This document shows positions 1-63,167 of a stretch of 64,000 nt of DNA, piece after piece (the stretch's first letter is position 1; each line of letters begins with the position of its first letter). Both the position numbers and the translations under genes were made by a program. Under the pieces are notes generated by a model. That model worked only from the letters and a program-made list of their open reading frames with translations, had not been told where the DNA came from and did no database searches. Source of the DNA: Gammaproteobacteria bacterium. Its GTDB lineage: Bacteria; Pseudomonadota; Gammaproteobacteria; Pseudomonadales; Pseudohongiellaceae. The DNA is taken from the NCBI GenBank assembly GCA_030744915.1, contig JASLPO010000019.1:28410-92409 (forward strand). The letters run 5' to 3'.

Positions 1-29
1 ATCAGTATAGCTCTGTGACTGACCGGTGC

Positions 30-1649
30 CTAGAAGCAATCTGCACTTGCCCGTAACCAATCGTCACGGTAAGATTCGGGGATAGCGCCACTGAGAAGTT
101 GCCGTTCATCCAAGGGGCAATAAATCTGGTCGAAATTCTTCGTACCGCCTTCACAACGGCTGTACAAGTCGGCGGGTGTAAGCTTGGAAGGGTTGTCGAA
201 TCCCATTGCTCCGCAGAGTTCCAGGAAGGCATGCACCGTGGCGTGGTGAAAGTTTCTCACGCGATCGGACTTCTCAAAGACATCGATAGCCCGGGCCCGG
301 GATGGGTTCTGTGTGGCGATGCCGGTGGGGCAATGATTGGTATTGCAATTTTTAGCTTGCACGCAACCCAATGCCATCATCATCGAGCGGGCGGCATTGA
401 CAGCATCAGCGCCGACGATGATCTTCTCCAACATGTCGAAACCCGTAGCAGTCTGACCCGCAGCGATGAGTTTGATGTGCTGGCGCAGGCCGGTGCCAAT
501 CAAAGCCTGATTCACGTAATAGGTCGCTTCGAGGCAGGGTATCCCCAGCCGATTGGAGAATTCAACCGGAGCCGCGCCGGTACCGCCCTCGGCGCCATCG
601 ATAGTAATAAAATCCGGCAGAATATTGCTTTCCAGCATGGCTTTTACGATGGCCAGAAATTCAGTTTTCCTGCCGAGGCAAAGCTTGAATCCGATGGGCT
701 TGCCATCGCTGAGTTTGCGCAGGCGAGCGACAAATTGAAGTAATCCACCGGGCGAATCGAACTCCGGATGAGTCGCGGGTGAGAGGACAGTCTTGCCAGC
801 CTCGACCAGGCGAATGGCGGCGATTTCTTCGGTGACTTTGGCGCCGGGCAGCATACCGCCATGGGAGGGTTTTGCTCCCTGGGAAATTTTAATTTCAATC
901 ATCTTCACGACACCGAGACTGGCACGCTCGGAAAAGGCCACATCGTTGAACGAGCCATCGGCGTTGCGGCAACCGAAGTAACCGGTACCTAACTGCCAGA
1001 TAATATCGCCTCCATGTGCCAGATGATGCTCGCTGATGCTCCCTTCCCCGGTGTTGTGTGCAAAATCGCCTTTTGCCGCTCCCAGGTTAAGCGCCTCGAT
1101 TGCCTTGGCACTCAGGGCACCGAAACTCATCGCTGAAATATTCAGACGGGAGGCACTGTAGGGTTGCTTGCAATCCGGCCCACCAACGGTAATCCGTTCA
1201 TGTTCATCGGCGACCACTACTGACTTAATCGAGTGAGCCAGACTGCGATAACCTTCTGAAAGAATTTCCTGTTCGGTACCGAAAGGCAGTGTATCGTTGG
1301 CACCCTTGGCTCTCCGATAGACAAGGTTGCGCCGTTCTCGGCTGAAAGGCTTCTCTTCAACATTATTGGCGATAAAGTATTGGTGAATTTCAGGACGAAT
1401 ATACTCCAACATGTAACGCATGTTAGCCAGCACGGGATAGTTTCGGCGCAAATTACTGGCTGAGAACATTAGTTCATATGCGCCCACGCCAGTCCATGCC
1501 AACAGAATCAAAAAGATTGTGAGTTGTAGGGGAGCATCAGAAAGAGCCGTTGGCGACAGATTGAATTCAGTGGTTAACAGTAGCCACAACAGACTCAGTG
1601 GCATGAAGATCAGGGCAATTGCCCAATACATTCGAACGACCGGAGTCAT
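30..1649 (-). CDS. FMN-binding glutamate synthase family protein (GltB FMN-domain-like, membrane anchored)
   Basis: 539-aa ORF. Two N-terminal hydrophobic helices precede a core with motifs ISQGAKPSHGGMLPG and DGAEGGTGAAP, typical of the glutamate synthase FMN domain family. Confidence 0.8.
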   Translation of the reverse strand: MTPVVRMYWAIALIFMPLSLLWLLLTTEFNLSPTALSDAPLQLTIFLILLAWTGVGAYELMFSASNLRRNYPVLANMRYMLEYIRPEIHQYFIANNVEEKPFSRERRNLVYRRAKGANDTLPFGTEQEILSEGYRSLAHSIKSVVVADEHERITVGGPDCKQPYSASRLNISAMSFGALSAKAIEALNLGAAKGDFAHNTGEGSISEHHLAHGGDIIWQLGTGYFGCRNADGSFNDVAFSERASLGVVKMIEIKISQGAKPSHGGMLPGAKVTEEIAAIRLVEAGKTVLSPATHPEFDSPGGLLQFVARLRKLSDGKPIGFKLCLGRKTEFLAIVKAMLESNILPDFITIDGAEGGTGAAPVEFSNRLGIPCLEATYYVNQALIGTGLRQHIKLIAAGQTATGFDMLEKIIVGADAVNAARSMMMALGCVQAKNCNTNHCPTGIATQNPSRARAIDVFEKSDRVRNFHHATVHAFLELCGAMGFDNPSKLTPADLYSRCEGGTKNFDQIYCPLDERQLLSGAIPESYRDDWLRASADCF

Positions 1650-1692
1650 TAGCTCACCTCGGCTCTCGCTGCTTCGAGAGCAGATCGGTTCC

Positions 1693-2406
1693 TCAAAAAT
1701 TCATTACAAACGTTACAGCGGTTTCAGTATCTGTTTCTTCGCGACCCGGTGGAACATCCGTCTGGTGTTTAATCTTCAGTGAAAGACGCAGGGATAGATT
1801 CTCAAGAATCTGGGTTTCGATGCTGCTTTCCGATCGATAGATGGTGGCATCAGATCCGAATTCCGTGCTGAGCTCCTGGCTAAAAACCGCTGAATTGGAA
1901 ACAGCCCAGTTATAGTCTCCGGCCAGACGCAGTATCGGCTCTTCGAAATCGGAATCATCCAGCCGTGACCAGCGAATACCGAGACCGGCATTCAGTGTTA
2001 GCCCCATGTCGGCTCTGTTCTGTAGAAATAGAGTACCGTAGCTGAAAGTGAGGTCAGACTGGCTGTCGAAACCGCTGAAGCGGTCATCTTCATGAGAAAA
2101 ACGACTCTGGAAGAAACTGTCGTCAGATATCTCGTAATCGGCGCTGGCGATACCATACCAGCGCTGACCTTTTATCTCGTTTTCGCTGGAAGAGTACAGG
2201 GCGTCGAGTGAAAAATCGTAATTCCAACGACCTCTGTCAAGATTGATTGAGCCAGCGAAATTGAGGGATTGTTCCTCAGTATTACCGGATGTGAACAGGC
2301 CACCGAGTTCAATTTCCCGGGTAATTCCATTTTCCTCTTGAGCTATTACCGATGTGCTCATCACGGCGATAAAGGAAGATAGCAATAATCTGTTCGGTGA
2401 TTTCAT
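1693..2406 (-). CDS. DUF481 (YdiY-like) outer-membrane beta-barrel protein
   Basis: The ORF was trimmed to the ATG at 2404-2406 (MKSPNRLLLSSFIAVMSTSVIAQE signal peptide). It has alternating beta-strand-like composition and a C-terminal aromatic residue (F), resembling DUF481 proteins. Confidence 0.6.
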   Translation of the reverse strand: MKSPNRLLLSSFIAVMSTSVIAQEENGITREIELGGLFTSGNTEEQSLNFAGSINLDRGRWNYDFSLDALYSSSENEIKGQRWYGIASADYEISDDSFFQSRFSHEDDRFSGFDSQSDLTFSYGTLFLQNRADMGLTLNAGLGIRWSRLDDSDFEEPILRLAGDYNWAVSNSAVFSQELSTEFGSDATIYRSESSIETQILENLSLRLSLKIKHQTDVPPGREETDTETAVTFVMNF

Positions 2407-2662
2407 GTCCTGACTTTCCTGGTTGCTACTGGTCGTACTACAGTTTTTCGGCACACTTCGCTGATGGCTTAGCGCTGGAAATACCCGGTGAATCACAGAG
2501 TTAGGGCTTCTCAGCCGCTATTGCCCTATTGACTGGGTCGCAGCGCTACTATCGTACGAGTTTTCTGGAGTTAGCGATTCTTTTGGAGTATAAGGCAGCA
2601 ATACCCGTTGAGGCGGTCGAAATTGCAGATTTATTTGCCTGGAGCCTTGTTTTCCCCCTCTG

Positions 2663-3157
2663 ATGAAAACCCTCTTCCTTCTGCGCCACGCCAAATCCAG
2701 TTGGGACGATCCAGAGCTGAAAGATTTTGAACGGCCCCTTGCCAGCCGGGGTACCGCCGATGTACCGGTGATGGCAGCACGTTTTCAGGACCGGGGCGGG
2801 CAGGTGGCGTGCATCATTTGCAGCCCGGCGAATCGTGCCAAGTCTACGGCCAGGCTATTTGCTAAAAATATTGAGTTTGATGTAGATGACATTATCAGCA
2901 ACCCGGAGTTGTACTTCGCCGGTACACAAATGTTCCTGAAGGCAGCCAGTCATGTGGACGAAACCTGTGATTCGGCCATGCTGGTGGGTCATAATCCCGC
3001 CATCACCGAGTTTGCAAATGTAATGGCGAATTGCGATATTGATTACATTCCCACCTGTGGCTTGGTTGAGATGAGGCTGCCCATTGAGTATTGGAACGAT
3101 ATAGATACCGGCATGGCGGATCTGCTGGAATTTGACTATCCAAAGAAATCAAAATGA
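2663..3157 (+). CDS. histidine phosphatase family protein (SixA-type)
   Basis: 164 aa. Contains the N-terminal LLRHAKS catalytic-His motif and a later GHNP motif, at SixA-like size. Confidence 0.7.
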   Translation: MKTLFLLRHAKSSWDDPELKDFERPLASRGTADVPVMAARFQDRGGQVACIICSPANRAKSTARLFAKNIEFDVDDIISNPELYFAGTQMFLKAASHVDETCDSAMLVGHNPAITEFANVMANCDIDYIPTCGLVEMRLPIEYWNDIDTGMADLLEFDYPKKSK

Positions 3158-3636
3158 AAACTACACTCATTAGAATTTTTTCCTTCCTGGTTACCCTGGC
3201 ACTGCCTGTGTTGTTGTTGACTGCCTGTTCTGATTCGGAATCGGTCTCAGTTCCGCAGACTGAGCAAACTGGAACTGCTTCCACATCGAGATGGTATAGC
3301 AATGAACAGGCGGTTACCGGCGCCGAGGTATTTGCCCGTAACTGTGCGGTGTGCCATGGTGAAAATGCCGAAGGCTTAGTAAGCGATTGGCGGCAGCGCC
3401 TGGATGATGGCTCCCTGCCACCACCACCGCTGAATGGGACCGCACACGCCTGGCACCATCCAAATGCAGTATTGTTGCAGGTAATCAATAATGGAGGTGC
3501 GGCGTTCGGTGGCAAGATGCCGGCATTTGCCGAAGTCCTGGATGAATCCGAGAAGCTGGCAGCAATCGCCTATTTTCAGAATTTCTGGAGTGATAAAATC
3601 TATGCACAATGGACCCAGATCGGTGGCTCCAATTAG
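3154..3636 (+). CDS. c-type cytochrome (lipoprotein)
   Basis: The ATGA start overlaps the stop of the preceding gene. It has a lipobox-like LLLTAC, a single CAVCH haem-binding motif and a distal Met region (GGKMPAF). Confidence 0.75.
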   Translation: MKTTLIRIFSFLVTLALPVLLLTACSDSESVSVPQTEQTGTASTSRWYSNEQAVTGAEVFARNCAVCHGENAEGLVSDWRQRLDDGSLPPPPLNGTAHAWHHPNAVLLQVINNGGAAFGGKMPAFAEVLDESEKLAAIAYFQNFWSDKIYAQWTQIGGSN

Positions 3637-4567
3637 AGCTTCGTTCTCGCTTCTTTATATACTACTGCTCTGTTCGAGCCTTCCTGCTGTCGCACAGCTT
3701 GAACCAATCCGGGAGTGGGAATCTGCGCTCTATGCCGATAATCCACTGGTGGGCCGGATATGGAGTAGCGCATCGGCTGACTTTATAGATAGCCAACAGC
3801 TGATTCAGTCCATTGAAGGTGCCAGCTACCTTTTATTGGGCGAGAAACATGACAACCCCGATCACCATGCTCTACAGCTGCTACTGCTGGAGCACGTAAT
3901 TAGCCAGGGACGTGCCAACAGTATCGCCTTCGAAATGATGGATAGCGATGCGCAGGAATTGTTGGACGACATCGGCCAGCAAGAACTGGCGACGCTGAGC
4001 GACCTCAAGACTTATCTGGGATGGGATGAAGAAGCCTGGGATTGGGAATTTTATGGCCCACTGCTCCAGGCGGTTTATGCGGCGGATCTGCCACTGACTG
4101 CTGCCAATATCACCAGTGCCACAATGGGCCGTGTCTACAGTGAGGAAACACCACCAGCGATAGCACGCGTTCTCGATGAGGAAACCATGCAGCAGCTGAA
4201 CCGGGATATCGATGAGAGTCACTGTGGGTTGCTGCCGGAATCCCAGTTTCCCGCCATGGTCAGAGTGCAGCAGACCAGGGATTACACGATGGCCCACAGC
4301 ATGGCTATTCCCGAGACTGGCAAAACAACCCTGTTGATCGCTGGCAACTACCACGCGCGTCACGACCTGGGAGTGCCAAATTATTTGTTGGCCAGAGATG
4401 AGCAACTTAAGCGCAGCGACATTCTGGCGCTTTCGTTCATGGAAGTGGAGCCAGGGGAGGAAGACCCTTCAGCCTATCTCCAGCAATTCATGTCCCAGCC
4501 GGCCTTTGACTATATCTGGTTTACTCCAGTTATCTCCGACGAGGATTACTGCGCGTCACTTCAATAG
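3602..4567 (+). CDS. ChaN family lipoprotein / haem-binding uptake-like protein
   Basis: Trimmed to the ATG at 3602, which is followed by a signal peptide (LLYILLLCSSLPAVAQ). The GEKHDNPDHH motif is characteristic of ChaN/DUF399. The start overlaps the cytochrome c 3' end. Confidence 0.65.
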   Translation: MHNGPRSVAPIRASFSLLYILLLCSSLPAVAQLEPIREWESALYADNPLVGRIWSSASADFIDSQQLIQSIEGASYLLLGEKHDNPDHHALQLLLLEHVISQGRANSIAFEMMDSDAQELLDDIGQQELATLSDLKTYLGWDEEAWDWEFYGPLLQAVYAADLPLTAANITSATMGRVYSEETPPAIARVLDEETMQQLNRDIDESHCGLLPESQFPAMVRVQQTRDYTMAHSMAIPETGKTTLLIAGNYHARHDLGVPNYLLARDEQLKRSDILALSFMEVEPGEEDPSAYLQQFMSQPAFDYIWFTPVISDEDYCASLQ

Positions 4568-4650
4568 TTAGCAGTAGCCGGCATTATCCAATGCTTGAAT
4601 AAAGCCTGGAATCTAGAGAAACTTGCAGCACACGAGTGATTTGCACCCCG

Positions 4651-5445
4651 ATGAGACTGAATCTACTAAACAAGCTGGCCAGCGGCCTGCTGATACTACT
4701 GCTGACCGCTCCTGCTCTGGCGCAGGTTTATCCCCGGATATCTGGCAACCAGGACCCGATCTATGACCTCGGTTATGACGAAGCCGGTGAGTTCAATTTC
4801 GTGCGAGTCCAGTTTGATACTTATTACGGCCGAGGCTTTGGATACGGCCCCTGGTCGATAGACTTTCCCGATGCTGATATGAATTTTCTGCGCGGTGTAT
4901 CCCGTCTCACAAACATACGCGTGATGAGCGATCCTATCGTGCTGCGCTTCGATGATGATGCGATCTTCGACTACCCTTTCCTCTACATGCTCGAAGTAGG
5001 TCAGGGAGGTGGTCTTATTCTGAGCCCGGGAGAAATCGAAAACTTGCGAGAGTACCTTCTAAGGGGTGGTTTTCTATTGATCGATGATTTCTGGGGACAA
5101 CAGCAATACAATAATTTTTTGGCGGCCTTCAGCCAGGTTTTTCCGGACCGGGAAATCATCGAGCTGAAACCGGATCATGAAATCTTTCATGTGTATTACG
5201 ATATCGATGGGCCGCAGCTCATTCCCGCACTGTTTCGCAGCGATGAATATGGCGAACAGGGAATCGACTACGCCAGCAACCATGCCATACTGGATGACTC
5301 TGGCCGGGTGATGGTGCTGATTAACTGGAATTCAGACATGGGCGATGGCTGGGAGCATACCTACCATCCTGCCTACCCGACTCGTTATGCGAATTCAGCC
5401 TACCGTCTTGGAATTAACTACTTGATGTATTCTATGACGCACTAA
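4651..5445 (+). CDS. DUF4159-like secreted protein
   Basis: Signal peptide LLILLLTAPALAQ. The motifs FNFVRVQF and WSIDFPDADMNFLRGV resemble DUF4159 as I remember it. The ATG at 4651 is preferred over the GTG at 4636. Confidence 0.5.
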   Translation: MRLNLLNKLASGLLILLLTAPALAQVYPRISGNQDPIYDLGYDEAGEFNFVRVQFDTYYGRGFGYGPWSIDFPDADMNFLRGVSRLTNIRVMSDPIVLRFDDDAIFDYPFLYMLEVGQGGGLILSPGEIENLREYLLRGGFLLIDDFWGQQQYNNFLAAFSQVFPDREIIELKPDHEIFHVYYDIDGPQLIPALFRSDEYGEQGIDYASNHAILDDSGRVMVLINWNSDMGDGWEHTYHPAYPTRYANSAYRLGINYLMYSMTH

Positions 5446-5450
5446 CGTTC

Positions 5451-5487
5451 AAGAGACAAGAAACAAGAGACAAGAGACAAGAAAAAG
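5451..5487. repeat. purine-rich heptamer tandem repeat (AGACAAG-like, about 5 copies)
   Basis: The sequence aagagacaag aaacaag agacaag agacaag aaaaag is read directly. It lies 18 nt upstream of the VOC gene ATG. Confidence 0.7.
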
Positions 5488-5504
5488 CACAATAGGGATC
5501 ATCT

Positions 5505-6284
5505 ATGAAAAAGCTTAGCTTGGTAGTTTTATTCACAGTTCTGTTTACATCTAAAAGTATTGCCACTCCTTATGATCATATTCACTTGACTGCTACTAAT
5601 GCACTCGAGGCGGTGAACTGGTATGTCAAGCATTTTGGGGGTGAGGCTGGTCGTTTTAATCGTGGGGGTGGGGATGAGGTTTACCCTATCGATAGAGTTT
5701 TCTATGACGATATAGCGGTGATTTTTTTCGAGCGTGAACCCACCGGTGGTTCTGTGGGTACCGGTGTGGATCATTTTGGTTTCTCGATGAGCAACGTCGA
5801 GGAGGTTGTTGCCGACGTCGTGGCAGATGGAGGCACGCAGCTCGGAGATTTTGTCGAATTCAGTGGCAAGCAAATCGCCTTCGTTGAAGATCCCTGGGGT
5901 ACCAAGATCGAGCTCATCAACGATCCGGATCTCAGAGGCATGCACCATTTGCATCTGTCATCGCCAGATCCGGAAGGGACGCTGGCGTGGTATTCGGAAA
6001 ACTTCGGCGGGGAGAGTGACTCCTTTGCTGGTGTGCTTCCGGGCCTGGACTATGGAGACATCTGGTTGCTGGTGGCCAGGACCGCTGAAACTCCTGCTCC
6101 CACCCTGGGTCGTAGTATGGATCATCTGGGTTGGAGATTTCCGGACCTGACTGCCGCCGCAGAACAGCTGAAGTCCAATGGCGTGGTGTTTTCGATGGAT
6201 CCCAGACCATTTCGGGGGATTCGAATTTCCTTCGTCGAAGGGCCGGATGGTGTACGCATCGAAGTGGTGGAAGTGGCTGACTAA
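5505..6284 (+). CDS. secreted VOC (glyoxalase/bleomycin resistance/dioxygenase) family protein, two tandem domains
   Basis: An SD (aggga) and a signal peptide are present. There are two repeats of the HIHLT.../HHLHLS... and DHFGF/DHLGW metal-ligand-like motifs. Confidence 0.75.
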   Translation: MKKLSLVVLFTVLFTSKSIATPYDHIHLTATNALEAVNWYVKHFGGEAGRFNRGGGDEVYPIDRVFYDDIAVIFFEREPTGGSVGTGVDHFGFSMSNVEEVVADVVADGGTQLGDFVEFSGKQIAFVEDPWGTKIELINDPDLRGMHHLHLSSPDPEGTLAWYSENFGGESDSFAGVLPGLDYGDIWLLVARTAETPAPTLGRSMDHLGWRFPDLTAAAEQLKSNGVVFSMDPRPFRGIRISFVEGPDGVRIEVVEVAD

Positions 6285-9278: not shown

Positions 9279-9839
9279 TTACTCGGAGTTGGACGGCTTT
9301 TCGCTGGATTCTTCCCTGGTGGCCAGATAATCCAGAATCAGCGCAGCATCGTGTTCCACGCAGCTCGCGCTATTTTGGTACATGTACTCGGCAGTCAGCT
9401 GCTGGATATGCTCTGCCATAGCAATCGTGTCCTTGAACGTCTGTATCTCCATCGGTGGCAGACCGCGATTGAGATAGAAATCCGTTAGCAGGCGTAGCTG
9501 TTTCTGGCTCAGGTTGTCGGCGAGGATCCTGGCGATTCCGGGCTGGAATTTTTCCCAGGCATACACATCGACGTAGCAGGCTGCAATAGAGTTCTTGATT
9601 TGCTCGGGCAGGGTGATTTCGGCCGACATGCTGACGATGCTGGCATAGGTTCGCAGAATGCCGCGAGTCTGTCGCAGGGCCAGGGAATCGAAGTGTTTGC
9701 CCATGTTGGTTACCCGCAGCAATCGGTTCGCATCGCGAATAGCATCAGCGTTTGCGTAGCCGGAAACGAGTAACAGACTCGCGATCAGGCAGAAGCTGGC
9801 GGATCTAAGAGGATTGCTAATCTTCACAGGTGATTTCAC
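9279..9839 (-). CDS. hypothetical secreted/periplasmic protein
   Basis: 186 aa with a GTG start and signal peptide FCLIASLLLVSGYANA. No family was recognised with confidence. Confidence 0.5.
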   Translation of the reverse strand: MKSPVKISNPLRSASFCLIASLLLVSGYANADAIRDANRLLRVTNMGKHFDSLALRQTRGILRTYASIVSMSAEITLPEQIKNSIAACYVDVYAWEKFQPGIARILADNLSQKQLRLLTDFYLNRGLPPMEIQTFKDTIAMAEHIQQLTAEYMYQNSASCVEHDAALILDYLATREESSEKPSNSE

Positions 9840-10048
9840 AGTCCATGGAAACTGATGCCGCTATTCTACTCTAAGAATAGGGACAGACCCCATTTTTCTG
9901 GCAAGGCAGTGAATAAAGCAATGTCAGAAGGAGAAAAATGGGGACAAAAAACGGGATCTGTCCTATCAATAGCTGCGGCAGATCAGTTGACTGCCGAAAT
10001 AGACAATGACAACATGCTGGCACAAATCAAACGAGGAGTGAATGGAGA

Positions 10049-10489
10049 GTGCGTTCTCCCAAACGAATCCTGTTTCTGGATCTGGTGCTTTCGATCTTTC
10101 GTCTCAACGGTCTGTTGATTGCCGAGGGCGACGACATGACGGAGAAGCTCGGACTAACCCATGCCCGCTGGAAAGTAATAGGTGCCATTGCCCTGTCAAA
10201 TGCGGGTCTAACCGTGCCTGGTGTTGCCAGAGTGCTAGGTCAGTCGCGCCAGGCAGTACAACGCATAACTGATGTTATGGTGGAAGATGGTCTTCTGATT
10301 TATGAACCTAATCCTAAACACAAGCGCTCGGTGCTGGTTACCCTCACCGAGGAAGGTAACCACGTCTATAACAAGCTGCGGGAAGTGCAGGATCCCTGGG
10401 CGATTGAAAACACCGAGGATATTCCCATCGAAGAACTGGATCAGGCTTTACGCCTGATCCGCCGGCTCATCAATAAATTTGATAAGTGA
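10049..10489 (+). CDS. MarR family transcriptional regulator
   Basis: 146 aa with a GTG start. The N-terminus (FRLNGLLIAEGDDMTEKLGLTHARWKVIGAI) and winged-helix region are typical of MarR. Confidence 0.8.
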   Translation: MRSPKRILFLDLVLSIFRLNGLLIAEGDDMTEKLGLTHARWKVIGAIALSNAGLTVPGVARVLGQSRQAVQRITDVMVEDGLLIYEPNPKHKRSVLVTLTEEGNHVYNKLREVQDPWAIENTEDIPIEELDQALRLIRRLINKFDK

Positions 10490-53963: not shown

Positions 53964-54300
53964 ATTGCAATTTTGAGTGACGAGTTTTCACGCAGTAAAG
54001 CGGCCATCAAACTCTGGAAGATTTTGTATTAATTGGGGATAATATTCGTTGAGATACGTAGAATTGCAGTGCTCTCTATGATGCTACTAAGAATCCTCCA
54101 GAATAGGCTAAATCGGTGCTTTTGACTAATACCTGAGCGGCTCCTGTCCAAATCATGGGCATGGCTGGGGAAAGCGTGTTTATTGACATTACGCAAGGAT
54201 AAGCAGTATTTTTGTCACGCAAACCGAAAGCTGGAAATGGAAGTCTAGCGACTTGTTTCAGCTTCATCGGATAGACGATGTATCGCTTGGAGAAAGATGT

Positions 54301-55878
54301 ATGGCTGGTTTTGTTACACGGCGCGAGTTTCTGAATTTACTGGGTGCTACCGGTGGTACTGCTGCAGCATTGAAAGCTGGTACCGCGCTGGGGCTTTTAC
54401 CTAACGGGGCTGCTGCCTCGTTGGACCTGTTAAACCCAGGTTCCAATGGACGTAAGGTCGCTATCCTGGGTAGTGGTATCTCGGGCCTTACCGCAGCCTA
54501 TGAGCTTGGCAAGGTCGGATATGATTGCACCGTACTGGAGGCCTCACACCGTGCCGGTGGCAGGATATTCACGGTAAGACACGGCGACCTGATCGATGAG
54601 ATTGGAAATCGCCAGTACTGTGAGTTTGATGATGAACCTCACATGTATTTCAACGCCGGTGCCGCGCGGATTCCCAGCACCCACCGTAACTTGCTGGGCT
54701 ACTGTAAGAAGTTGGGTGTCGAACTCGAGGTATTCGTTAGTGAAAATAACAATGCCTATCTGCAGGACGATGCGCTGATGGGTGGCAAACCGATCCGCAG
54801 CAACGACTACAAGACCAATGTACGGGGGTTCCTCTCAGAGATGCTGGCTAAGTCCATGTCCATGGAAGAGATGAACCAACCCTTCACCGAGTCTGAAGCC
54901 GAACACATTCTGGGGATGTTGAGATCATTTGGGGATTTGAGTGAAGATGATCTTTACCGTGGTAGTTTTCGAAACGGCTATGCTTCAGGCGGATTCCTTA
55001 GACACAGGGTTCAGAAAGACATGATTGCATTCCGCGACCTCTTGAAGGGGAGCGTGGGTCGGGAAGCCCTGGCTGGATTTGAAGGTGATTATGGTCCGAT
55101 GCTGATGCAACCCCTGGGTGGCATGGATAAAATTATTGCGGGCTACACTCGGGAGCTCGGAAATAAAGTGAAATACCGCACCATAGTAACCGGCGTACAA
55201 GTCAAAGATGACGGTGTCGATGTCGCCTATGATCAGGACGGTGTGCGACACAGCTTGAATGCTGACTATTGCTTCAATTGCATCCCTACTCACCTGATGG
55301 TGGGCATGGAGCACAATTTTCCGAATGACTATGTCAAGGCAATGAAATATGTCCGGCGGGGGGAGGCTTACAAGGCCGCGTTTCAGGCCAAGCAGCGATT
55401 CTGGGAAAAAGACGATATCTACGGTGGTATTTCTTGGATGAATAATCGGAGTCAGCAAGTCTGGTACCCATTCCACGGCATACATAAGGCCAAGGGCGTA
55501 GTCCTGGGCGCCTATGACTACGGTGGTGGGATGTACCACACACTGATGCCGCAGAAGGATAGAATCGAAGCCCACTTAAGAGACGGTGAGAAGGTTCACC
55601 CGAACTACCGTAGCCTGGTTGAAAAACCAATTACCATCGCCTGGCATCGAATGAACCACATGTTAGGGTGTTCGGCGAGCTGGTCGCGAAACTTCAGGCA
55701 GGGTTGGACCCAAGAGGAAGAAACCATGTATGACACCTTGCGGGCACCTGTGAACGGTCGGCACTATTTTATCGGTGATCAGATAAGCATGCATTCGGCC
55801 TGGCAGGAGAGTGCAATCATGTCGGCACAATGGGCATTGGCCAACTTTGATAAACGAGTGCGTTCCGAAGCACTCTGA
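54301..55878 (+). CDS. Tat-signal flavin-containing amine oxidase family protein
   Basis: The ATG at 54301 has a ggaga SD. A twin-arginine signal MAGFVTRREFLNLLGATGGTAAALKAGTALG is followed by the FAD fold VAILGSGISGLTAAYELGKVGYDCTVLEASHRAGGR. Confidence 0.85.
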   Translation: MAGFVTRREFLNLLGATGGTAAALKAGTALGLLPNGAAASLDLLNPGSNGRKVAILGSGISGLTAAYELGKVGYDCTVLEASHRAGGRIFTVRHGDLIDEIGNRQYCEFDDEPHMYFNAGAARIPSTHRNLLGYCKKLGVELEVFVSENNNAYLQDDALMGGKPIRSNDYKTNVRGFLSEMLAKSMSMEEMNQPFTESEAEHILGMLRSFGDLSEDDLYRGSFRNGYASGGFLRHRVQKDMIAFRDLLKGSVGREALAGFEGDYGPMLMQPLGGMDKIIAGYTRELGNKVKYRTIVTGVQVKDDGVDVAYDQDGVRHSLNADYCFNCIPTHLMVGMEHNFPNDYVKAMKYVRRGEAYKAAFQAKQRFWEKDDIYGGISWMNNRSQQVWYPFHGIHKAKGVVLGAYDYGGGMYHTLMPQKDRIEAHLRDGEKVHPNYRSLVEKPITIAWHRMNHMLGCSASWSRNFRQGWTQEEETMYDTLRAPVNGRHYFIGDQISMHSAWQESAIMSAQWALANFDKRVRSEAL

Positions 55879-55940
55879 CCGCTTTACTCGATACCTCCTT
55901 AACTAATGAGACACCTGACTCTTCCTGGAGAAGTTGTGGA

Positions 55941-56579
55941 ATGAATGACGGATTGAAACGAAGCAAGCTAGTGCTTATCGGCATTGGAATGCTGTTCAGT
56001 GGGCTGCTTTTTGCGGCAGAGAATGCGCGCGAACCCTTCGACGACAGATACTGCAATACCTGCCATGGCACAGATGGTAAGGGCAACGAAGGAGTACAGG
56101 CGCCAAGGCTTGCCGGCATGGAAGATTGGTACCTGCAGAGGCAACTGGAAAATTTTAGATCCGAAATACGCGGTGTACATCCCCAAGACATAGAAGGGCT
56201 AGCCATGCAACCGATGGCGGCGAAACTGAGCGATGCAAGCATCGTCGATATCTTACAGTGGGTGGGTAGCTGGGACTATGTTCCGGCAGAAGTGACCATT
56301 GAAGGCGATGCATCGGCGGGTCGTCAGCTGTATGACGCCTGCGCAAGCTGTCACGGTGCTGATGGTGAAGGCAATGAGGCTTTGGGTGCGCCAGCCCTGG
56401 CGGGGCAGAACGATTGGTACCTGGTGACCCAGTTAAAAAACTTCCTTGCGGGTTATCGAGGTAAGCTGTCACAGGATACTTTCGGGCAACAGATGGCCAC
56501 CATGGTGCGTACTCTGGGAGATGAACAGGGTATTATCAACGTGGTCAGCTATATCAACAACCTTTCTGGCGGCAAGTAG
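55941..56579 (+). CDS. di-haem c-type cytochrome (c4-like)
   Basis: Signal peptide plus two CxxCH motifs (CNTCH, CASCH), each followed by a Met-containing segment. Located 62 nt downstream of the amine oxidase gene. Confidence 0.85.
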   Translation: MNDGLKRSKLVLIGIGMLFSGLLFAAENAREPFDDRYCNTCHGTDGKGNEGVQAPRLAGMEDWYLQRQLENFRSEIRGVHPQDIEGLAMQPMAAKLSDASIVDILQWVGSWDYVPAEVTIEGDASAGRQLYDACASCHGADGEGNEALGAPALAGQNDWYLVTQLKNFLAGYRGKLSQDTFGQQMATMVRTLGDEQGIINVVSYINNLSGGK

Positions 56580-56764: not shown

Positions 56765-58162
56765 ATGTCTGCATTTGCAATCGTAAACTTGATTCTATTT
56801 GCAGCTTTGCTGAGTTTACTGTATCAACTGACCAAGCTGGATAACGGGCTATCTCGACGGGTTCTGGTGGGGCTGGTCGCTGGCTCAATCTTTGGATTCT
56901 ACCTGCAAGCTGTTTATGGATACGGCGATGTAGTGACGCAGCAGACATTGGAGTGGACCAATGTCATAGCGAACTCCTATGTGAACCTTTTGCGCATGAT
57001 TATCATGCCGTTGGTTCTAATCACCATGATCGCCGCCGTGCTTCGGGTCGAGGAAATCAAGTCGCTGGGTAAGATTGGCAGCTCGGTTGTTGGAATTCTG
57101 ATCGGCACTACGATGATAGCGGCACTGATCGGCATCATGATGGCGCTGCTCTTCGGGCTGAACGCCGGTGACCTCGCAGCGGGTGCTCAGGAAATAGCTC
57201 GGGCAGAATCCCTGGAAGCACGGCAGGGCTCTGTTGCCGGTCTAGCTTCGCCACAGGGTTTGCCGGCACTTTTGGTGAGTTTCGTTTCCAGTAATATTTT
57301 CAGAGATCTTACCGATGCCCGTGAAACGTCTATCATTGCCGTGGTGATTTTTGGATTGCTATTCGGTATTGCGGCCCTGTTGGTTTGTGAAGAGGACAAG
57401 ACCCACGGTGAGCACATTCGGTCCTTCGTCGACACCACTCAGGCTGTCGTGATGAAGCTAGTCAAGCTGGTGATAAACCTGACTCCTTACGGCGTGCTGG
57501 CGCTGATGACAAGGGTGATTGCGAACTCCGACGGCAATGCCATTATTACCCTCATCAGTTTCGTTATCGCGTCTTATATCGCTATCGTCATTATGTTTGG
57601 CGTGCACGCCTTGCTCATTGGACTGTTGGGCAAAAGCATCAAGACATATTTTCAAAAAGTATGGCCGGTGCTGACATTCGCCTTTGTCACACGTAGCTCT
57701 GCTGCGACGATTCCACTGACGATTCGTGCCCAGATCGAAGAACTGAAAGTGCCTGCTCCCATCGCCAATATTTCGACATCATTCGGAGCGACGATTGGAC
57801 AGAACGGCTGTGCCGGCATCTATCCAGCGATGCTGGCGGTCATGGTGGCGCCTACGATGGGTGTGGCTGTCGACCTCAGTTTCATCGCCAGCCTGATCGT
57901 GATTATCGCCATTGGCTCATTTGGAATTGCCGGTGTTGGAGGGGGGGCCACTGCCGCGGCACTGGTGGTATTGCCCGCCATGGGATTCCCCGTTACCGTG
58001 GTAGCACTATTGATTTCCATCGAGCCACTCATCGACATGGCGCGTACTGCCCTGAACGTAAACGGGGCAATTACTACCGGTATGATCACCAGCCGCTTCC
58101 TGGGGGATACGGTTGCCGACCACTCGCCGGATGTCACCACCCAACCAGTACAGGAAAACTAG
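56765..58162 (+). CDS. dicarboxylate/amino acid:cation symporter family transporter (possibly TcyP/YdjN-like)
   Basis: About 465 aa with DAACS-type topology and conserved FGATIGQNGCAGIYPAM and VGGGATAAALVVL segments. The subfamily guess is from memory only. Confidence 0.8.
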   Translation: MSAFAIVNLILFAALLSLLYQLTKLDNGLSRRVLVGLVAGSIFGFYLQAVYGYGDVVTQQTLEWTNVIANSYVNLLRMIIMPLVLITMIAAVLRVEEIKSLGKIGSSVVGILIGTTMIAALIGIMMALLFGLNAGDLAAGAQEIARAESLEARQGSVAGLASPQGLPALLVSFVSSNIFRDLTDARETSIIAVVIFGLLFGIAALLVCEEDKTHGEHIRSFVDTTQAVVMKLVKLVINLTPYGVLALMTRVIANSDGNAIITLISFVIASYIAIVIMFGVHALLIGLLGKSIKTYFQKVWPVLTFAFVTRSSAATIPLTIRAQIEELKVPAPIANISTSFGATIGQNGCAGIYPAMLAVMVAPTMGVAVDLSFIASLIVIIAIGSFGIAGVGGGATAAALVVLPAMGFPVTVVALLISIEPLIDMARTALNVNGAITTGMITSRFLGDTVADHSPDVTTQPVQEN

Positions 58163-58275
58163 CGCGTTTGACTTTTCTAGGGACCACTATTGAGAAGTGC
58201 AATTGAAGATGGCTTCACCTTTGCGTTGTAGCTGGTTCTTTTTTGGCGCAACATAAACAGAATGTAAAAATAGAT

Positions 58276-58954
58276 ATGTTTGTGCGCATCCAAAGATTGT
58301 TAAGTAATGACAATCTACGGCAGTTGGATAATTTGGTCGCGTGAAGAGAATTTGTTGACGGTAAAGCAACGGCAGAAGCACCAACCAAGAGACTAAAGAA
58401 TAATCTGCAACTGGATCTTGATTCTCATCCGGAGAAGGAAAAATTTCTACGATTGATTAATAAAGTGATGAATAGTCCATCCTTCGGTTCGATCTGCGGC
58501 AGTCCCGCGACACATGACCGCACCTATTGTAAGCAAATACGAGAAGGGGATGTTCTGCAGTTGGCATATCGATAATCCCATCATACCGGGAGTTGGCAGG
58601 CCGGTCAGATCCGATGTGTTATGCACTATATTTCTGAGCGAAAGCGCTGACTATGATGGCGGCGAACTGGTGGTTCTCTCACTGACCGGCGATGTCAAAA
58701 TTAAACTGGACAGAGGTGATGCGGTACTCTATCCGTTTTCCTATTGGCATCAGGTGGCAGAAGTCACATGTGGCGAGCGCCTAGCAATACTTTTCTGGAC
58801 TCAGAGCATGATTGCGGATATAGGCAAGCAGTAATTACTACATGACCTAGAGCTGGCATATAACCAGATCCTCAGGGACAATCCGAATTCGGATGCAATA
58901 AGAATGATCCAACGGGCCCAGTCCAACCTCGTCCGACGCTGGAGCGAAGTATAA
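58276..58954 (+). pseudogene. PKHD-type Fe(II)/2-oxoglutarate hydroxylase (PiuC-like) pseudogene
   Basis: A PiuC-like sequence can be followed from MFVRIQRLLSNDNLRQLDNLVA through an in-frame TGA (58342-58344). It continues as REFVDGKATAE..LKNNLQL, crosses a frameshift near 58495-58513 into the 58514-58834 ORF (YDGGELV..LYPFSYWHQV), then crosses an in-frame TAA (58832-58834) into LLHDLELAYNQ...LVRRWSEV. Confidence 0.7.
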
Positions 58955-58987
58955 GCAGAGCCAAGAAGACGCTGCAGCGTTCTGTGT

Positions 58988-60206: not shown

Positions 60207-60240
60207 GGTGGCAGCTTCGGGGTGTCAGCAGGAGAAGTGG

Positions 60241-61311
60241 ATGTTCAAGTCGAAATTGCTTCTAGTGCTGCTTGCCCTATGCTTGCTGCCGCAAATTCTT
60301 GCCCAGACAACTGCCGATGTGCAGGATTTCAATGCCGCCTATATTGAGTACGCCAATACCAGGGAATCGAATCCAGAGCTGGCACGGGAGGCGGCTCGAA
60401 GAGCCTATGACATCGGTCAGCGAGTGTTCGGCGAGAGCAATGAGCGAACTGCTATGCTGGCAATCAACTATGCACTGCTGATCGAGGATGAGGCACAGGC
60501 ACACACGTTTCTCGATGAGGCGGTAAGCATCTACCAGTCGCTGTTCGGTTTCGGCAGCGAAGCCATGATCGAACCCTTGATGCGTTTAGGCAGGTCATTG
60601 AGCGATAGCCAACAACTGCGCTCGGCCGCTGAATACTATGAGCGCGCATTGCGCCTGGCACACACACACGCGCAAGAGTCGGCAGGCAGGATTGGAGCGA
60701 TCGAGTTGGAGTTGGGTGCAATAGCGCTGCGTAGCGATCAACTCGAAGTGGCCTATTCCAGGCTGGGCAATGCCGTGGAACGGCTGCAATCGCTCTCCGA
60801 TGCTGCATCACAGAGTAACCACGCGAGGGCAAACCTGTTATTGGGAGATTACTTCCTCAAGACCGAACAATACCGGCAGGCAGTACAGCCATTGCTTGTC
60901 GCGCTGGAATCGCTGGCGAAGTACCCTAACGCGGATGTCACTCTGCGCAATCGGATTGCCCTGATTGTGGCCTATGAAAATCTCGGCATGCGGGAAGCAG
61001 CCACCGTGCACTGCCTTGCAATCGGTGCCACTAGAAGAGTTCCGGCAGGACAGAATATGCGACCGTTGTATTCGGTAATCCCCACTGCAGAACTGCCCGA
61101 TGGAACGAGCTCTCATTCAATTGCAGTACGGGTGGCATTCACGGTGGATGAAAATGGCTTTGTCAGGGATGCAGAACTGGTGAGTGGTGGCACCAGCGAA
61201 ACCTTGTCCACGGTGTTTTTGAATGCCATCGGAAAATTTCGGTTTGCCCCGCAATTTGTCGACGGCAAAGCAGTAGCCACTCCCAATCAACAATTTGTAT
61301 TCAGGTACTAG
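60241..61311 (+). CDS. secreted TPR-like protein with C-terminal TonB_C domain
   Basis: aggag SD and signal peptide LLLVLLALCLLPQILAQ. Helical repeat region, then a C-terminal VRVAFTVDENGFVRDAELVSGG...FRFAPQFVDGKAV typical of TonB C-terminal domains. Confidence 0.7.
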   Translation: MFKSKLLLVLLALCLLPQILAQTTADVQDFNAAYIEYANTRESNPELAREAARRAYDIGQRVFGESNERTAMLAINYALLIEDEAQAHTFLDEAVSIYQSLFGFGSEAMIEPLMRLGRSLSDSQQLRSAAEYYERALRLAHTHAQESAGRIGAIELELGAIALRSDQLEVAYSRLGNAVERLQSLSDAASQSNHARANLLLGDYFLKTEQYRQAVQPLLVALESLAKYPNADVTLRNRIALIVAYENLGMREAATVHCLAIGATRRVPAGQNMRPLYSVIPTAELPDGTSSHSIAVRVAFTVDENGFVRDAELVSGGTSETLSTVFLNAIGKFRFAPQFVDGKAVATPNQQFVFRY

Positions 61312-61313
61312 AG

Positions 61314-63167
61314 ATGAAAAAATTACTAACACTCTTTCTTTGTGCGTGTGCTCTCAGTGCGAGTGCCCAGAACCGTATCGAAGTTTTAGAAGCCAGCATA
61401 GCAGAATTGCAGGCTGCTCTCGACGCGGGAACAACCAGCTCGGTCCAGCTGGTGGATCAATACCTGGCACGCATTGCCGCCTATGATAAACAGGGGCCGG
61501 TATTGAACAGCATCGTTCGCACTAATCCCGCTGCCCGTGAAACAGCTGCCGCTCTGGATGCGGAAAGGGCACGCAGCGGACCCCGCAGTAGCTTGCATGG
61601 CATACCGATCCTCGTCAAAGACAATTACAACACCACCATGTTGCCTACCACTGGCGGCTCTGTCGCACTTGCCAATTTTGTTCCCAATACCAATGCCACC
61701 CAGGTCAATAAGCTCATCGATGCCGGCGCCATCATTGTTGCTAAAACGACCCTGCATGAATATGCTTATGGCATAACCACCATCGCCTCTCTGAGTGGCC
61801 AGACGCGTAATCCCTATGATTATCGCCGTGTGCCCGGTGGTTCCAGCGGTGGGACCGGGGCCGCAGTAGCGGCAAGTTTCGGGGCAATAGGGCTGGGATC
61901 TGATACCTGCGGATCGATTCGAATTCCGTCGGCATTCAACAATCTTTTCGGACTCCGCCCCAGCAAGGGGCTGTCCAGCATCCACGGTGTCATGCCCTTG
62001 TCTCACACTCAGGACGTCGCCGGTCCGCTGGCGCGCAGCCTCGATGATCTGGCGATCCTGCTGGACATCGTCGTCGGCTACGATGCCAATGATGCCGCCA
62101 CCGCCCCCATGCAGAACACCCCCCATCCCCAGTTTCGACAGAATCTGGATTCCTTAACGCCAGAGGGCTTGCGCATCGGTAGACTGAGTGTCGCCTTCGA
62201 CAATGCCAACGGTGCAGTGCGCGGGCCAATCAATGATGCGCTGGAGTGGTATGAGGAACAGGGAGTCGAGTTGGTGGATATTGAAATTCCGGAAATGACT
62301 GAGCTGCTTTCAGCCAGTGGTTTGATTGGGCACGAATTTCGGGTAGATCTGGATCAGTATCTGCAGCAGTTTGGCAGCGAAGCAATCGCCAATCTGGGCG
62401 ACATAGTCGATCGCGGACTCTATCACCAGGCCGTCAACGGACCGCTGGCGCGCAGCCGCAACGCTGAACGTGATGAGGCGGCGTATACTACCGCCATGGC
62501 TGCCCGCTCGGCCTTGCGTGATGCAGTGGAGAAAGTATTCTTGGACAATCGGCTCGACGCGATTGTGTATCCCACTGTTATCGAGAATCAGGTATTTATC
62601 GGTGATCCACAACCGGGGAGTCAATGCCAACTTGCCGCCCACTCAGGACTGCCTGCACTGTCAATGCCGGTGGGCTTAAACGGGAGGGGGCTCCCGGTTG
62701 GCATGGAACTGTTAGGCCAATATTTTCAGGATGTTCGCTTACTGGCGATGGCGTATCCCTATGAGCAGGCGATGGATCCGAGACAGCCGCCGTCAGTGAC
62801 GCCGCAGTTGGTCAACGGTGCCGCTCCTGAACCCCTGACAATTGAGATGGAATTTGACCGCCAGCAAACTGTGCTGCAGGCGAGATTCGAAGTCGATATT
62901 GCGCGCAACTCCTTTCGCTATGAACTCATGCTGGATGCGGCAAATCGAGCCGAGGTGTATGCGGTAACCCTCAGTATCGATGCAGACCAGGACCAGCAGT
63001 TGAATGATCCGATAGTCTTGAATCTGTTGGGTCCCGATATGCGTCAGTCCAGTGGCGAACAATTCATGAGCGGGGCATTCCGGGCTGCCCTGAGTGAAGG
63101 GCGTCTCTATGTTAAGGTTTTCGCCGATTTGCTGCCGATTACCGGCGCTACCCAGCGTATTCAGTGA
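61314..63167 (+). CDS. secreted amidase (amidase-signature family) with ~130-aa C-terminal extension
   Basis: Signal peptide and the AS motifs KDN.., GGSSGG and GSDTCGSIRIPSAFN. It starts 3 nt after the preceding stop. Confidence 0.88.
   Translation: MKKLLTLFLCACALSASAQNRIEVLEASIAELQAALDAGTTSSVQLVDQYLARIAAYDKQGPVLNSIVRTNPAARETAAALDAERARSGPRSSLHGIPILVKDNYNTTMLPTTGGSVALANFVPNTNATQVNKLIDAGAIIVAKTTLHEYAYGITTIASLSGQTRNPYDYRRVPGGSSGGTGAAVAASFGAIGLGSDTCGSIRIPSAFNNLFGLRPSKGLSSIHGVMPLSHTQDVAGPLARSLDDLAILLDIVVGYDANDAATAPMQNTPHPQFRQNLDSLTPEGLRIGRLSVAFDNANGAVRGPINDALEWYEEQGVELVDIEIPEMTELLSASGLIGHEFRVDLDQYLQQFGSEAIANLGDIVDRGLYHQAVNGPLARSRNAERDEAAYTTAMAARSALRDAVEKVFLDNRLDAIVYPTVIENQVFIGDPQPGSQCQLAAHSGLPALSMPVGLNGRGLPVGMELLGQYFQDVRLLAMAYPYEQAMDPRQPPSVTPQLVNGAAPEPLTIEMEFDRQQTVLQARFEVDIARNSFRYELMLDAANRAEVYAVTLSIDADQDQQLNDPIVLNLLGPDMRQSSGEQFMSGAFRAALSEGRLYVKVFADLLPITGATQRIQ

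Follow-up and report, generated by a model that had tools for sequence, protein, structure and literature searches.

What does an exported flavin enzyme encoded beside a cytochrome c oxidize, and where do its electrons go? The question is raised by two adjacent genes in a 64,000-nucleotide stretch (here called the window) of a marine gammaproteobacterium of the Pseudohongiellaceae (assembly GCA_030744915.1, contig JASLPO010000019.1, positions 28,410 to 92,409 of the forward strand); all positions given below are those of the window unless a relative's locus is named. The first gene (54301..55878, plus strand) encodes a 525-residue flavin adenine dinucleotide (FAD) enzyme with a signal for twin-arginine translocation (Tat), and the second (55941..56579, plus strand) encodes a di-haem cytochrome c of 212 residues. 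An earlier note on this DNA had taken the pair for a NicA2/CycN-type periplasmic amine dehydrogenase module of unknown substrate. We find it probable that the pair is a periplasmic L-amino-acid:cytochrome c oxidoreductase that feeds respiration; the electron path, the poor reactivity with O2, and which amino acid is used are the parts of this reading that we infer.

The flavoprotein is a member of the Rhodococcus opacus-type L-amino-acid oxidase (LAAO) family within the flavin amine oxidoreductase superfamily. Its residues 60 to 510 match Pfam PF01593 (Amino_oxidase; E = 4e-35), and its GxGxxG dinucleotide-binding motif (G57 to G62; 54469..54486, plus strand) is conserved in the family alignment, with G57 and G59 in 56 of 56 sequences and G62 in 54 of 56 (Ala in the other two). 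E80 is also conserved, and the amine-oxidase FAD fold named in the earlier note is borne out. By sequence, the best match in the PDB is the R. opacus enzyme (roLAAO, 2jae), at an E value of 3.8e-73 and 250 bits over the full length, with 32% identity across 477 aligned positions; the next matches are snake-venom LAAOs at 96 bits or less. Residues 110 to 525, which leave out the N-terminal dinucleotide-binding part, were also searched against the PDB to an E value of 10, and nearly all matches were L-amino-acid, L-glutamate, or L-lysine oxidases. The sole matches of another type were two at chance level (E of about 1), and NicA2, monoamine oxidase, polyamine oxidase, and LSD1 were absent from the matches to that threshold.

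The predicted structure gives the same placement. A model made from a 53-sequence alignment (predicted local distance difference test score [pLDDT], 81; predicted template modeling score [pTM], 0.79) superposed on roLAAO with template modeling (TM) scores of 0.84/0.92 and a root mean square deviation of 2.6 to 2.8 Å. The next-best fold match had a TM score of 0.65 (venom LAAOs), and NicA2 was not found among the top 50. A model based on 15 close sequences reached a pLDDT of only 59 and was set aside as poor. Since roLAAO is the best match in both sequence and fold, and since matches outside the LAAO type do not rise above chance level beyond the Rossmann motif, the flavoprotein belongs with roLAAO, and its comparison with NicA2 is one of analogy, not of kinship.

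Residues aligned with the substrate site of roLAAO bear on the substrate class. Arg123 (54667..54669, plus strand), kept in 56 of the 56 sequences of the family sample, aligns with roLAAO Arg84, and Tyr405 (55513..55515, plus strand), kept in 53 of 58, aligns with roLAAO Tyr371; we take these two roLAAO residues to be ligands of the substrate alpha-carboxylate. Lys358, the lysine near flavin N5, is kept in 55 of 58 sequences and Trp501 in 57 of 58. Gene neighborhoods add a second line of evidence. We scanned one genome per species, which yielded at least 571 loci, and made our counts over the best 80; nearly all of these come from Pseudohongiella or Pseudomonadales metagenome-assembled genomes (MAGs), with flavoproteins 61 to 96% identical to that of the window. 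An exported RidA (Pfam PF01042) is encoded in 62 of the 80 loci, and the relatives' RidA sequences, read directly, have a signal peptide each and retain the Arg conserved in true imine deaminases. Both the conservation of the Arg and Tyr aligned with the roLAAO carboxylate clamp and the near-constant presence of an exported RidA in the relatives point to L-alpha-amino acids as the predicted substrate class, and “unknown substrate” says too little.

The N terminus of the flavoprotein reads MAGFVTRREFL and contains the Tat motif, TRREFL, that had been noted before, at residues 6 to 11 of a signal peptide covering approximately residues 1 to 39 (54301..54417, plus strand; assigned from the conservation of the twin arginine and the roLAAO alignment). 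The open reading frame (ORF) runs from an ATG at 54301, preceded at 8 nt by the sequence GGAG, to the stop at 55878. Of the 55 family members having an N terminus, 54 keep the twin arginine, and the alignments of the homologues start at residues 1 to 5; the motif thus lies inside the protein and not upstream of the true start codon, a doubt that the earlier note had raised. In the crystallized, signal-free chain of roLAAO, residue 3 aligns with residue 42 of the flavoprotein, which places the N terminus of that chain at about residue 40. This start fits a predicted Tat cleavage after the AAA at residues 37 to 39.

The cytochrome ORF begins exactly 62 nt after the flavoprotein stop, on the same strand. 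As had been reported, its product is a di-haem protein: motif and alignment place haem-binding site 1 (CNTCH) at residues 38 to 42 (56052..56066, plus strand) and site 2 (CASCH) at residues 134 to 138 (56340..56354, plus strand). The protein consists of two homologous halves, seen as an internal repeat and as two Pfam Cytochrom_C stretches, each with a CxxCH and a conserved Met, and C38, C41, H42, C134, C137, H138, M89, M92, and M185 are invariant in the homologues. Its N terminus, read as a signal for the general secretory (Sec) pathway, is basic and hydrophobic and ends in AxA-like sites in 13 of 13 aligned homologues. In the PDB the protein matches cytochrome c4 (1etp; E = 1.4e-14) and also the CcoP di-haem domain, with a weak match to FccA (3vrd; E = 1e-4); we call it c4-like. 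That its two haems set it apart from the nicotine system, as the earlier note held, stands in that CycN is mono-haem, but a di-haem partner is not new in the superfamily: the partners in clade 1 of Akram et al. 2025 (PMC12224317) are di-haem c4-type cytochromes of ∼20 kDa.

The pairing of flavoprotein and cytochrome is conserved among relatives. In 78 of the 80 loci, a cytochrome homologue (56 to 93% identical) lies directly 3′ of the flavoprotein gene and in the same orientation; the two genes are separated by a median of roughly 42 nt, and in several loci they share a few nucleotides. Neither of the two remaining loci (L069 and L071) has a downstream cytochrome; both have a di-haem cytochrome gene 5 kb upstream, on the other strand, within positions 1 to 5800 of those loci. 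Between it and the flavoprotein gene are genes for a secreted protein of ∼845 residues, read as TonB-receptor-like, and a protein of ∼700 residues, read as a regulator, both from their N termini alone. Across the loci the identities of flavoprotein and cytochrome co-vary (r = 0.66). Most often (54 loci) the genes run flavoprotein, cytochrome, transporter, RidA, and an alternative without the transporter (flavoprotein, cytochrome, RidA) occurs in ∼10. In the window, the flavoprotein, cytochrome, and transporter genes are all intact and full length relative to relatives up to 97% identical.

Many Pseudohongiella-like MAGs encode two paralogous flavoproteins, with a separate di-haem cytochrome beside each (L043/L073, L025/L079, L052/L076, L016/L060, and others). 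This arrangement of one cytochrome per paralogue fits the partner specificity reported for other flavin amine oxidoreductases (PMC12224317). As to the surroundings of the two pair types, one is found with a TcyP-like transporter gene and RidA, and the other has flavoprotein and cytochrome genes that touch or overlap by a few nucleotides and no further partners.

The association extends to distant relatives. A Woeseiaceae genome, whose flavoprotein is 45% identical to that of the window, has the flavoprotein, a di-haem cytochrome, and an exported RidA. Among annotated plasmids and chromids, the flavoprotein gene has a cytochrome c gene next to it in Dinoroseobacter (pDSHI02, L088) and Roseinatronobacter (L098), in Comamonas, Microvirga, Sulfitobacter, and Ketogulonicigenium (all four with RidA), and in Mesorhizobium, Rhizobium, Deinococcus, Thiodictyon, and two Paraburkholderia; in all nine ORF-scanned loci of this set the cytochrome has a single CxxCH. 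The pair stands beside cytochrome c oxidase genes (ctaD, COX1/COX2) in three distant lineages: next to ctaD in Dinoroseobacter and Roseinatronobacter and, in Caldilinea (Chloroflexota; L086), as flavoprotein, cytochrome, and second flavoprotein directly after the cytochrome oxidase operon. Among the Gram-positive relatives sampled (Metabacillus and Nonomuraea; the R. opacus locus was not among them), no adjacent cytochrome was found. Nonomuraea has the flavoprotein with RidA, and a Metabacillus plasmid (pBY2G20; L095, 3357-6620) carries flavoprotein, Rid, tatA, and tatC genes in a row, a dedicated Tat system with no cytochrome.

Within a 58-sequence tree (from a short “quick” search, with Shimodaira-Hasegawa-like approximate likelihood ratio test support only), the di-haem-linked flavoproteins of the Woeseiaceae and of the Pseudohongiella type are united in a single clade at 99% support. 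A second clade holds the Gram-positive enzymes, roLAAO among them, and the mono-haem-linked flavoproteins make up a third. Given this distribution of di-haem, mono-haem, and Gram-positive clades, the link to a cytochrome was gained or lost several times, as also found for other branches of the superfamily (PMC12224317).

How, then, might the pair work? The flavoprotein would fold with FAD in the cytoplasm and leave through the Tat pathway. In the periplasm, an L-alpha-amino acid would be bound by the Arg123/Tyr405 carboxylate clamp, and hydride removal would yield a 2-imino acid and reduced FAD (FADH2). The FADH2 would be reoxidized in two one-electron steps by the di-haem c4-like cytochrome, and not by O2, and the cytochrome would hand the electrons on to a terminal oxidase. 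The imino acid would become a 2-oxo acid and ammonium, a step that the exported RidA may accelerate in most relatives and that would be spontaneous here. Support for a cytochrome as acceptor comes from Akram et al. 2025 (PMC12224317), who showed that, among Tat flavin amine oxidoreductases, many of those encoded next to a cytochrome c are dehydrogenases and that an adjacent cytochrome c gene is the stronger predictor of dehydrogenase function. Their sample consisted of the top 5,000 BLAST hits of NicA2, and the LAAO-type family probably lies outside it, as its similarity to NicA2 appears too low for those hits. The earlier proposal of a dehydrogenase feeding the respiratory chain is thus supported in its logic, by an exported enzyme with a conserved cytochrome and the dehydrogenase signature of that study, but not in its assignment to the NicA2 family.

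The genes occur in near-identical form in many seawater metagenomes. All three (flavoprotein, cytochrome, and transporter) are covered by metatranscriptome contigs, that of the flavoprotein at ≥99% identity in two runs, and one contig from a 95 to 99% identical relative spans 55811 to 56046, across the flavoprotein stop and into the cytochrome gene, which gives modest support to co-transcription of the two genes. A sigma-70-like promoter candidate lies 5′ of the flavoprotein gene (54183..54212, plus strand; TTGACA-18-TATTTT, 10 of 12 matches). It is a weak candidate, identified by consensus match alone, and such sites are rarer in the real sequence than in shuffles.

Several points weigh against a cytochrome-linked amino-acid dehydrogenase. 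We know of no LAAO-type clade enzyme shown biochemically to reduce cytochrome c, and roLAAO is known as an H2O2-forming oxidase. No adjacent cytochrome was found in some relatives of Gram-negative type, namely, a Rhodospirillales MAG, a planctomycete-like contig, Sphingomonas, and the loci P0129 and P0149. A tblastn search found no RidA anywhere in the 64-kb window; imine hydrolysis is also spontaneous, so the core reaction would be independent of RidA. DNA may be present among the metatranscriptome contigs, which are assemblies. Finally, Akram et al. 2025 (PMC12224317) state that sequence does not allow O2 reactivity to be predicted, and the c4-type pairs in their study were slow to react in solution.

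One alternative is that the flavoprotein, like that of R. opacus, is an ordinary periplasmic L-amino-acid oxidase that makes H2O2 and that the cytochrome serves another job, such as general respiration or peroxide handling. We regard this as unlikely, although the closest characterized relative is an oxidase and some relatives lack an adjacent cytochrome. An unrelated job for the cytochrome agrees poorly with its place beside the flavoprotein gene in nearly all of the 80 loci, often with overlap and with co-varying identities, and with the presence of its own cytochrome beside each paralogous flavoprotein. Gram-positive members of the family, which have no periplasm, lack the cytochrome, and the cytochrome is c4-like and not a di-haem peroxidase. 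The conserved Lys358 cuts both ways: the lysine near flavin N5 promotes the reaction with O2 in oxidases, but the same residue is also found in proven dehydrogenases (PMC12224317).

A dehydrogenase of NicA2/Pnao type, acting on an amine that is not an amino acid, is in our view improbable. The superfamily fold, the Tat signal, and an adjacent Sec cytochrome c are shared with the nicotine system, but outside the FAD motif there is no detectable similarity of NicA2 type, and the top 50 fold matches contain none. Moreover, the aligned carboxylate-clamp residues are conserved, and the commonest partner across the family is an exported RidA, a protein that acts on 2-imino acids. We give very little credence to an amino-acid 2-monooxygenase, which would convert its substrate to an amide by oxidative decarboxylation and work with a downstream amidase like IaaM/IaaH: an amidase-signature gene does lie downstream in about half of the 80 loci and one source labels a Woeseiaceae homologue “tryptophan 2-monooxygenase,” but that label is automatic, such an enzyme needs O2 as its acceptor and leaves the conserved cytochrome and RidA unexplained, and the amidase is often separated from the cluster, in the window by four genes, one of them a pseudogene.

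The third gene of the cluster (56765..58162, plus strand; Pfam SDF, E = 1e-95) encodes a transporter of 465 residues, with a likely start at ATG 56765 and a gap of 185 nt after the cytochrome gene. The earlier note had called it a DAACS amino-acid/dicarboxylate transporter; a DAACS/SDF gene does follow the pair, but it is of the TcyP-like cystine type and not a dicarboxylate carrier. Over 91% of its length, the protein shares 54.6% identity with E. coli tcyP and with genes that carry an L-cystine transporter annotation, and it reached no NCBIfam equivalog cutoff; its transport specificity is a prediction from these similarities. A Glu/Asp type had been considered from the conserved D-x-x-R-T motif, compared with an aspartate transporter structure, and was dropped at 55% identity to E. 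coli TcyP. Homologues 70 to 95% identical follow the cytochrome gene in 54 of the 80 loci. E. coli TcyP (YdjN) is a cystine/sulfocysteine symporter, and the presence of a TcyP-like importer in the cluster suggests, but does not establish, that the module is tied to cystine or related sulfur amino acids.

In 54 of the loci, RidA comes after the transporter gene. Comparison of loci, with tblastn, locates the site where it is missing from the window at 58163..58275. Locus L008 has the transporter, RidA (9794-10261), a PiuC-like gene, and a reductase; the window and the 96% identical L001 have the transporter, a PiuC-like remnant, and the reductase, and RidA is absent from both (58163-58987 in the window). 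Since 62 of 80 relatives have RidA and neither the window nor L001 does, it was lost in the window's lineage, and the cluster here is a trimmed copy.

Other neighboring genes are less closely associated. An amidase-signature enzyme is encoded farther downstream (61314..63167, plus strand; Pfam Amidase, E = 2e-98), and homologues of it lie downstream in 38 of the 80 loci, in some directly after RidA (L005 and L054). The amidase could supply or process substrates, but a link to the module is not established. For the protein encoded at 60208 to 61311, Pfam gives TPR repeats alone at an E value of ≤0.001, and a TonB C-terminal domain was not detected. Upstream of the flavoprotein gene, by ∼270 nt, a divergent gene for a cupin-like protein of ∼106 residues is found in ∼40 loci (e.g., L054, 5422-5742, minus strand); it is absent from the window.

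If the electron path of the amino-acid:cytochrome c oxidoreductase is confirmed, the L-amino-acid “oxidase” family would consist largely of respiratory dehydrogenases in bacteria of Gram-negative type, and the revised view of the flavin amine oxidoreductase superfamily from 2025 would reach its amino-acid branch as well. At sea, dissolved amino acids would become a source of nitrogen and energy through deamination in the periplasm linked to respiration. We put forward only tentatively a further possibility, that the clade with its private di-haem c4-like cytochrome forms a stable flavocytochrome rather than a transient pair and serves as an expressed, widespread marine route of amino-acid respiration, which the importer would direct to the turnover of cystine or sulfur amino acids. 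Were this true, periplasmic respiration of dissolved free amino acids would yield ammonium and energy without H2O2. For the window itself, the main value is a corrected annotation, as an L-amino-acid dehydrogenase module and not a nicotine-like amine system.

The module can be set beside several known systems. With roLAAO (2jae/2jb1), the flavoprotein shares a Tat-type N terminus, the aligned Arg, Tyr, Lys, and Trp, and the overall domain arrangement, whereas the R. opacus enzyme, from a Gram-positive bacterium, is secreted and works as an oxidase with O2. Flavocytochrome c sulfide dehydrogenase (FccAB) likewise combines a periplasmic Tat flavoprotein with a di-haem c4-like cytochrome, but it is a stable heterodimer that acts on sulfide, and its FccB is a flavoprotein of a different family. 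NicA2/Pnao-CycN of Pseudomonas putida S16 has a Tat flavin amine oxidoreductase and an adjacent Sec cytochrome c, and electron transfer to cytochrome c is what we propose here as well. It differs in belonging to another branch of the superfamily and in acting on nicotine-type amines, against the alpha-amino acid predicted here; CycN is a mono-haem class I cytochrome of ∼11 kDa, whereas the window's cytochrome has two CxxCH motifs in 212 residues.

The gene arrangement itself has already been described in other bacteria. Our literature search found no paper linking Pseudohongiella to this enzyme. Rodrigues et al. 2016 (PMC5053998) reported a lao-cccA-ridA cluster in Gluconacetobacter diazotrophicus PAL5 (GDI2456-2454), whose Lao carries a Tat signal and shares 34% identity with roLAAO. 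The formation of Trp-derived indole-3-acetic acid (IAA) is abolished by Tn5 insertion in lao, earlier mutants in cytochrome c maturation (ccm) made IAA at ∼5% of the wild-type level, and the authors proposed the cytochrome as electron carrier (PMC5053998). These mutants are genetic evidence that oxidation of the amino acid (Trp) requires both the flavoprotein and the maturation of cytochrome c. The two clusters share a Tat-signal, roLAAO-like flavoprotein, a clustered cytochrome c gene, and, in most of the window's relatives, RidA. They differ in that the window lacks RidA and has a TcyP-like importer gene after that of the cytochrome. The window's cytochrome is di-haem and c4-like, and the haem number of the G. 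diazotrophicus cccA product is not stated in that paper (PMC5053998). The G. diazotrophicus cluster serves auxin synthesis in a plant endophyte, whereas the organism of the window is marine. The module of the window is thus of the lao-cccA-ridA cluster type, minus RidA.

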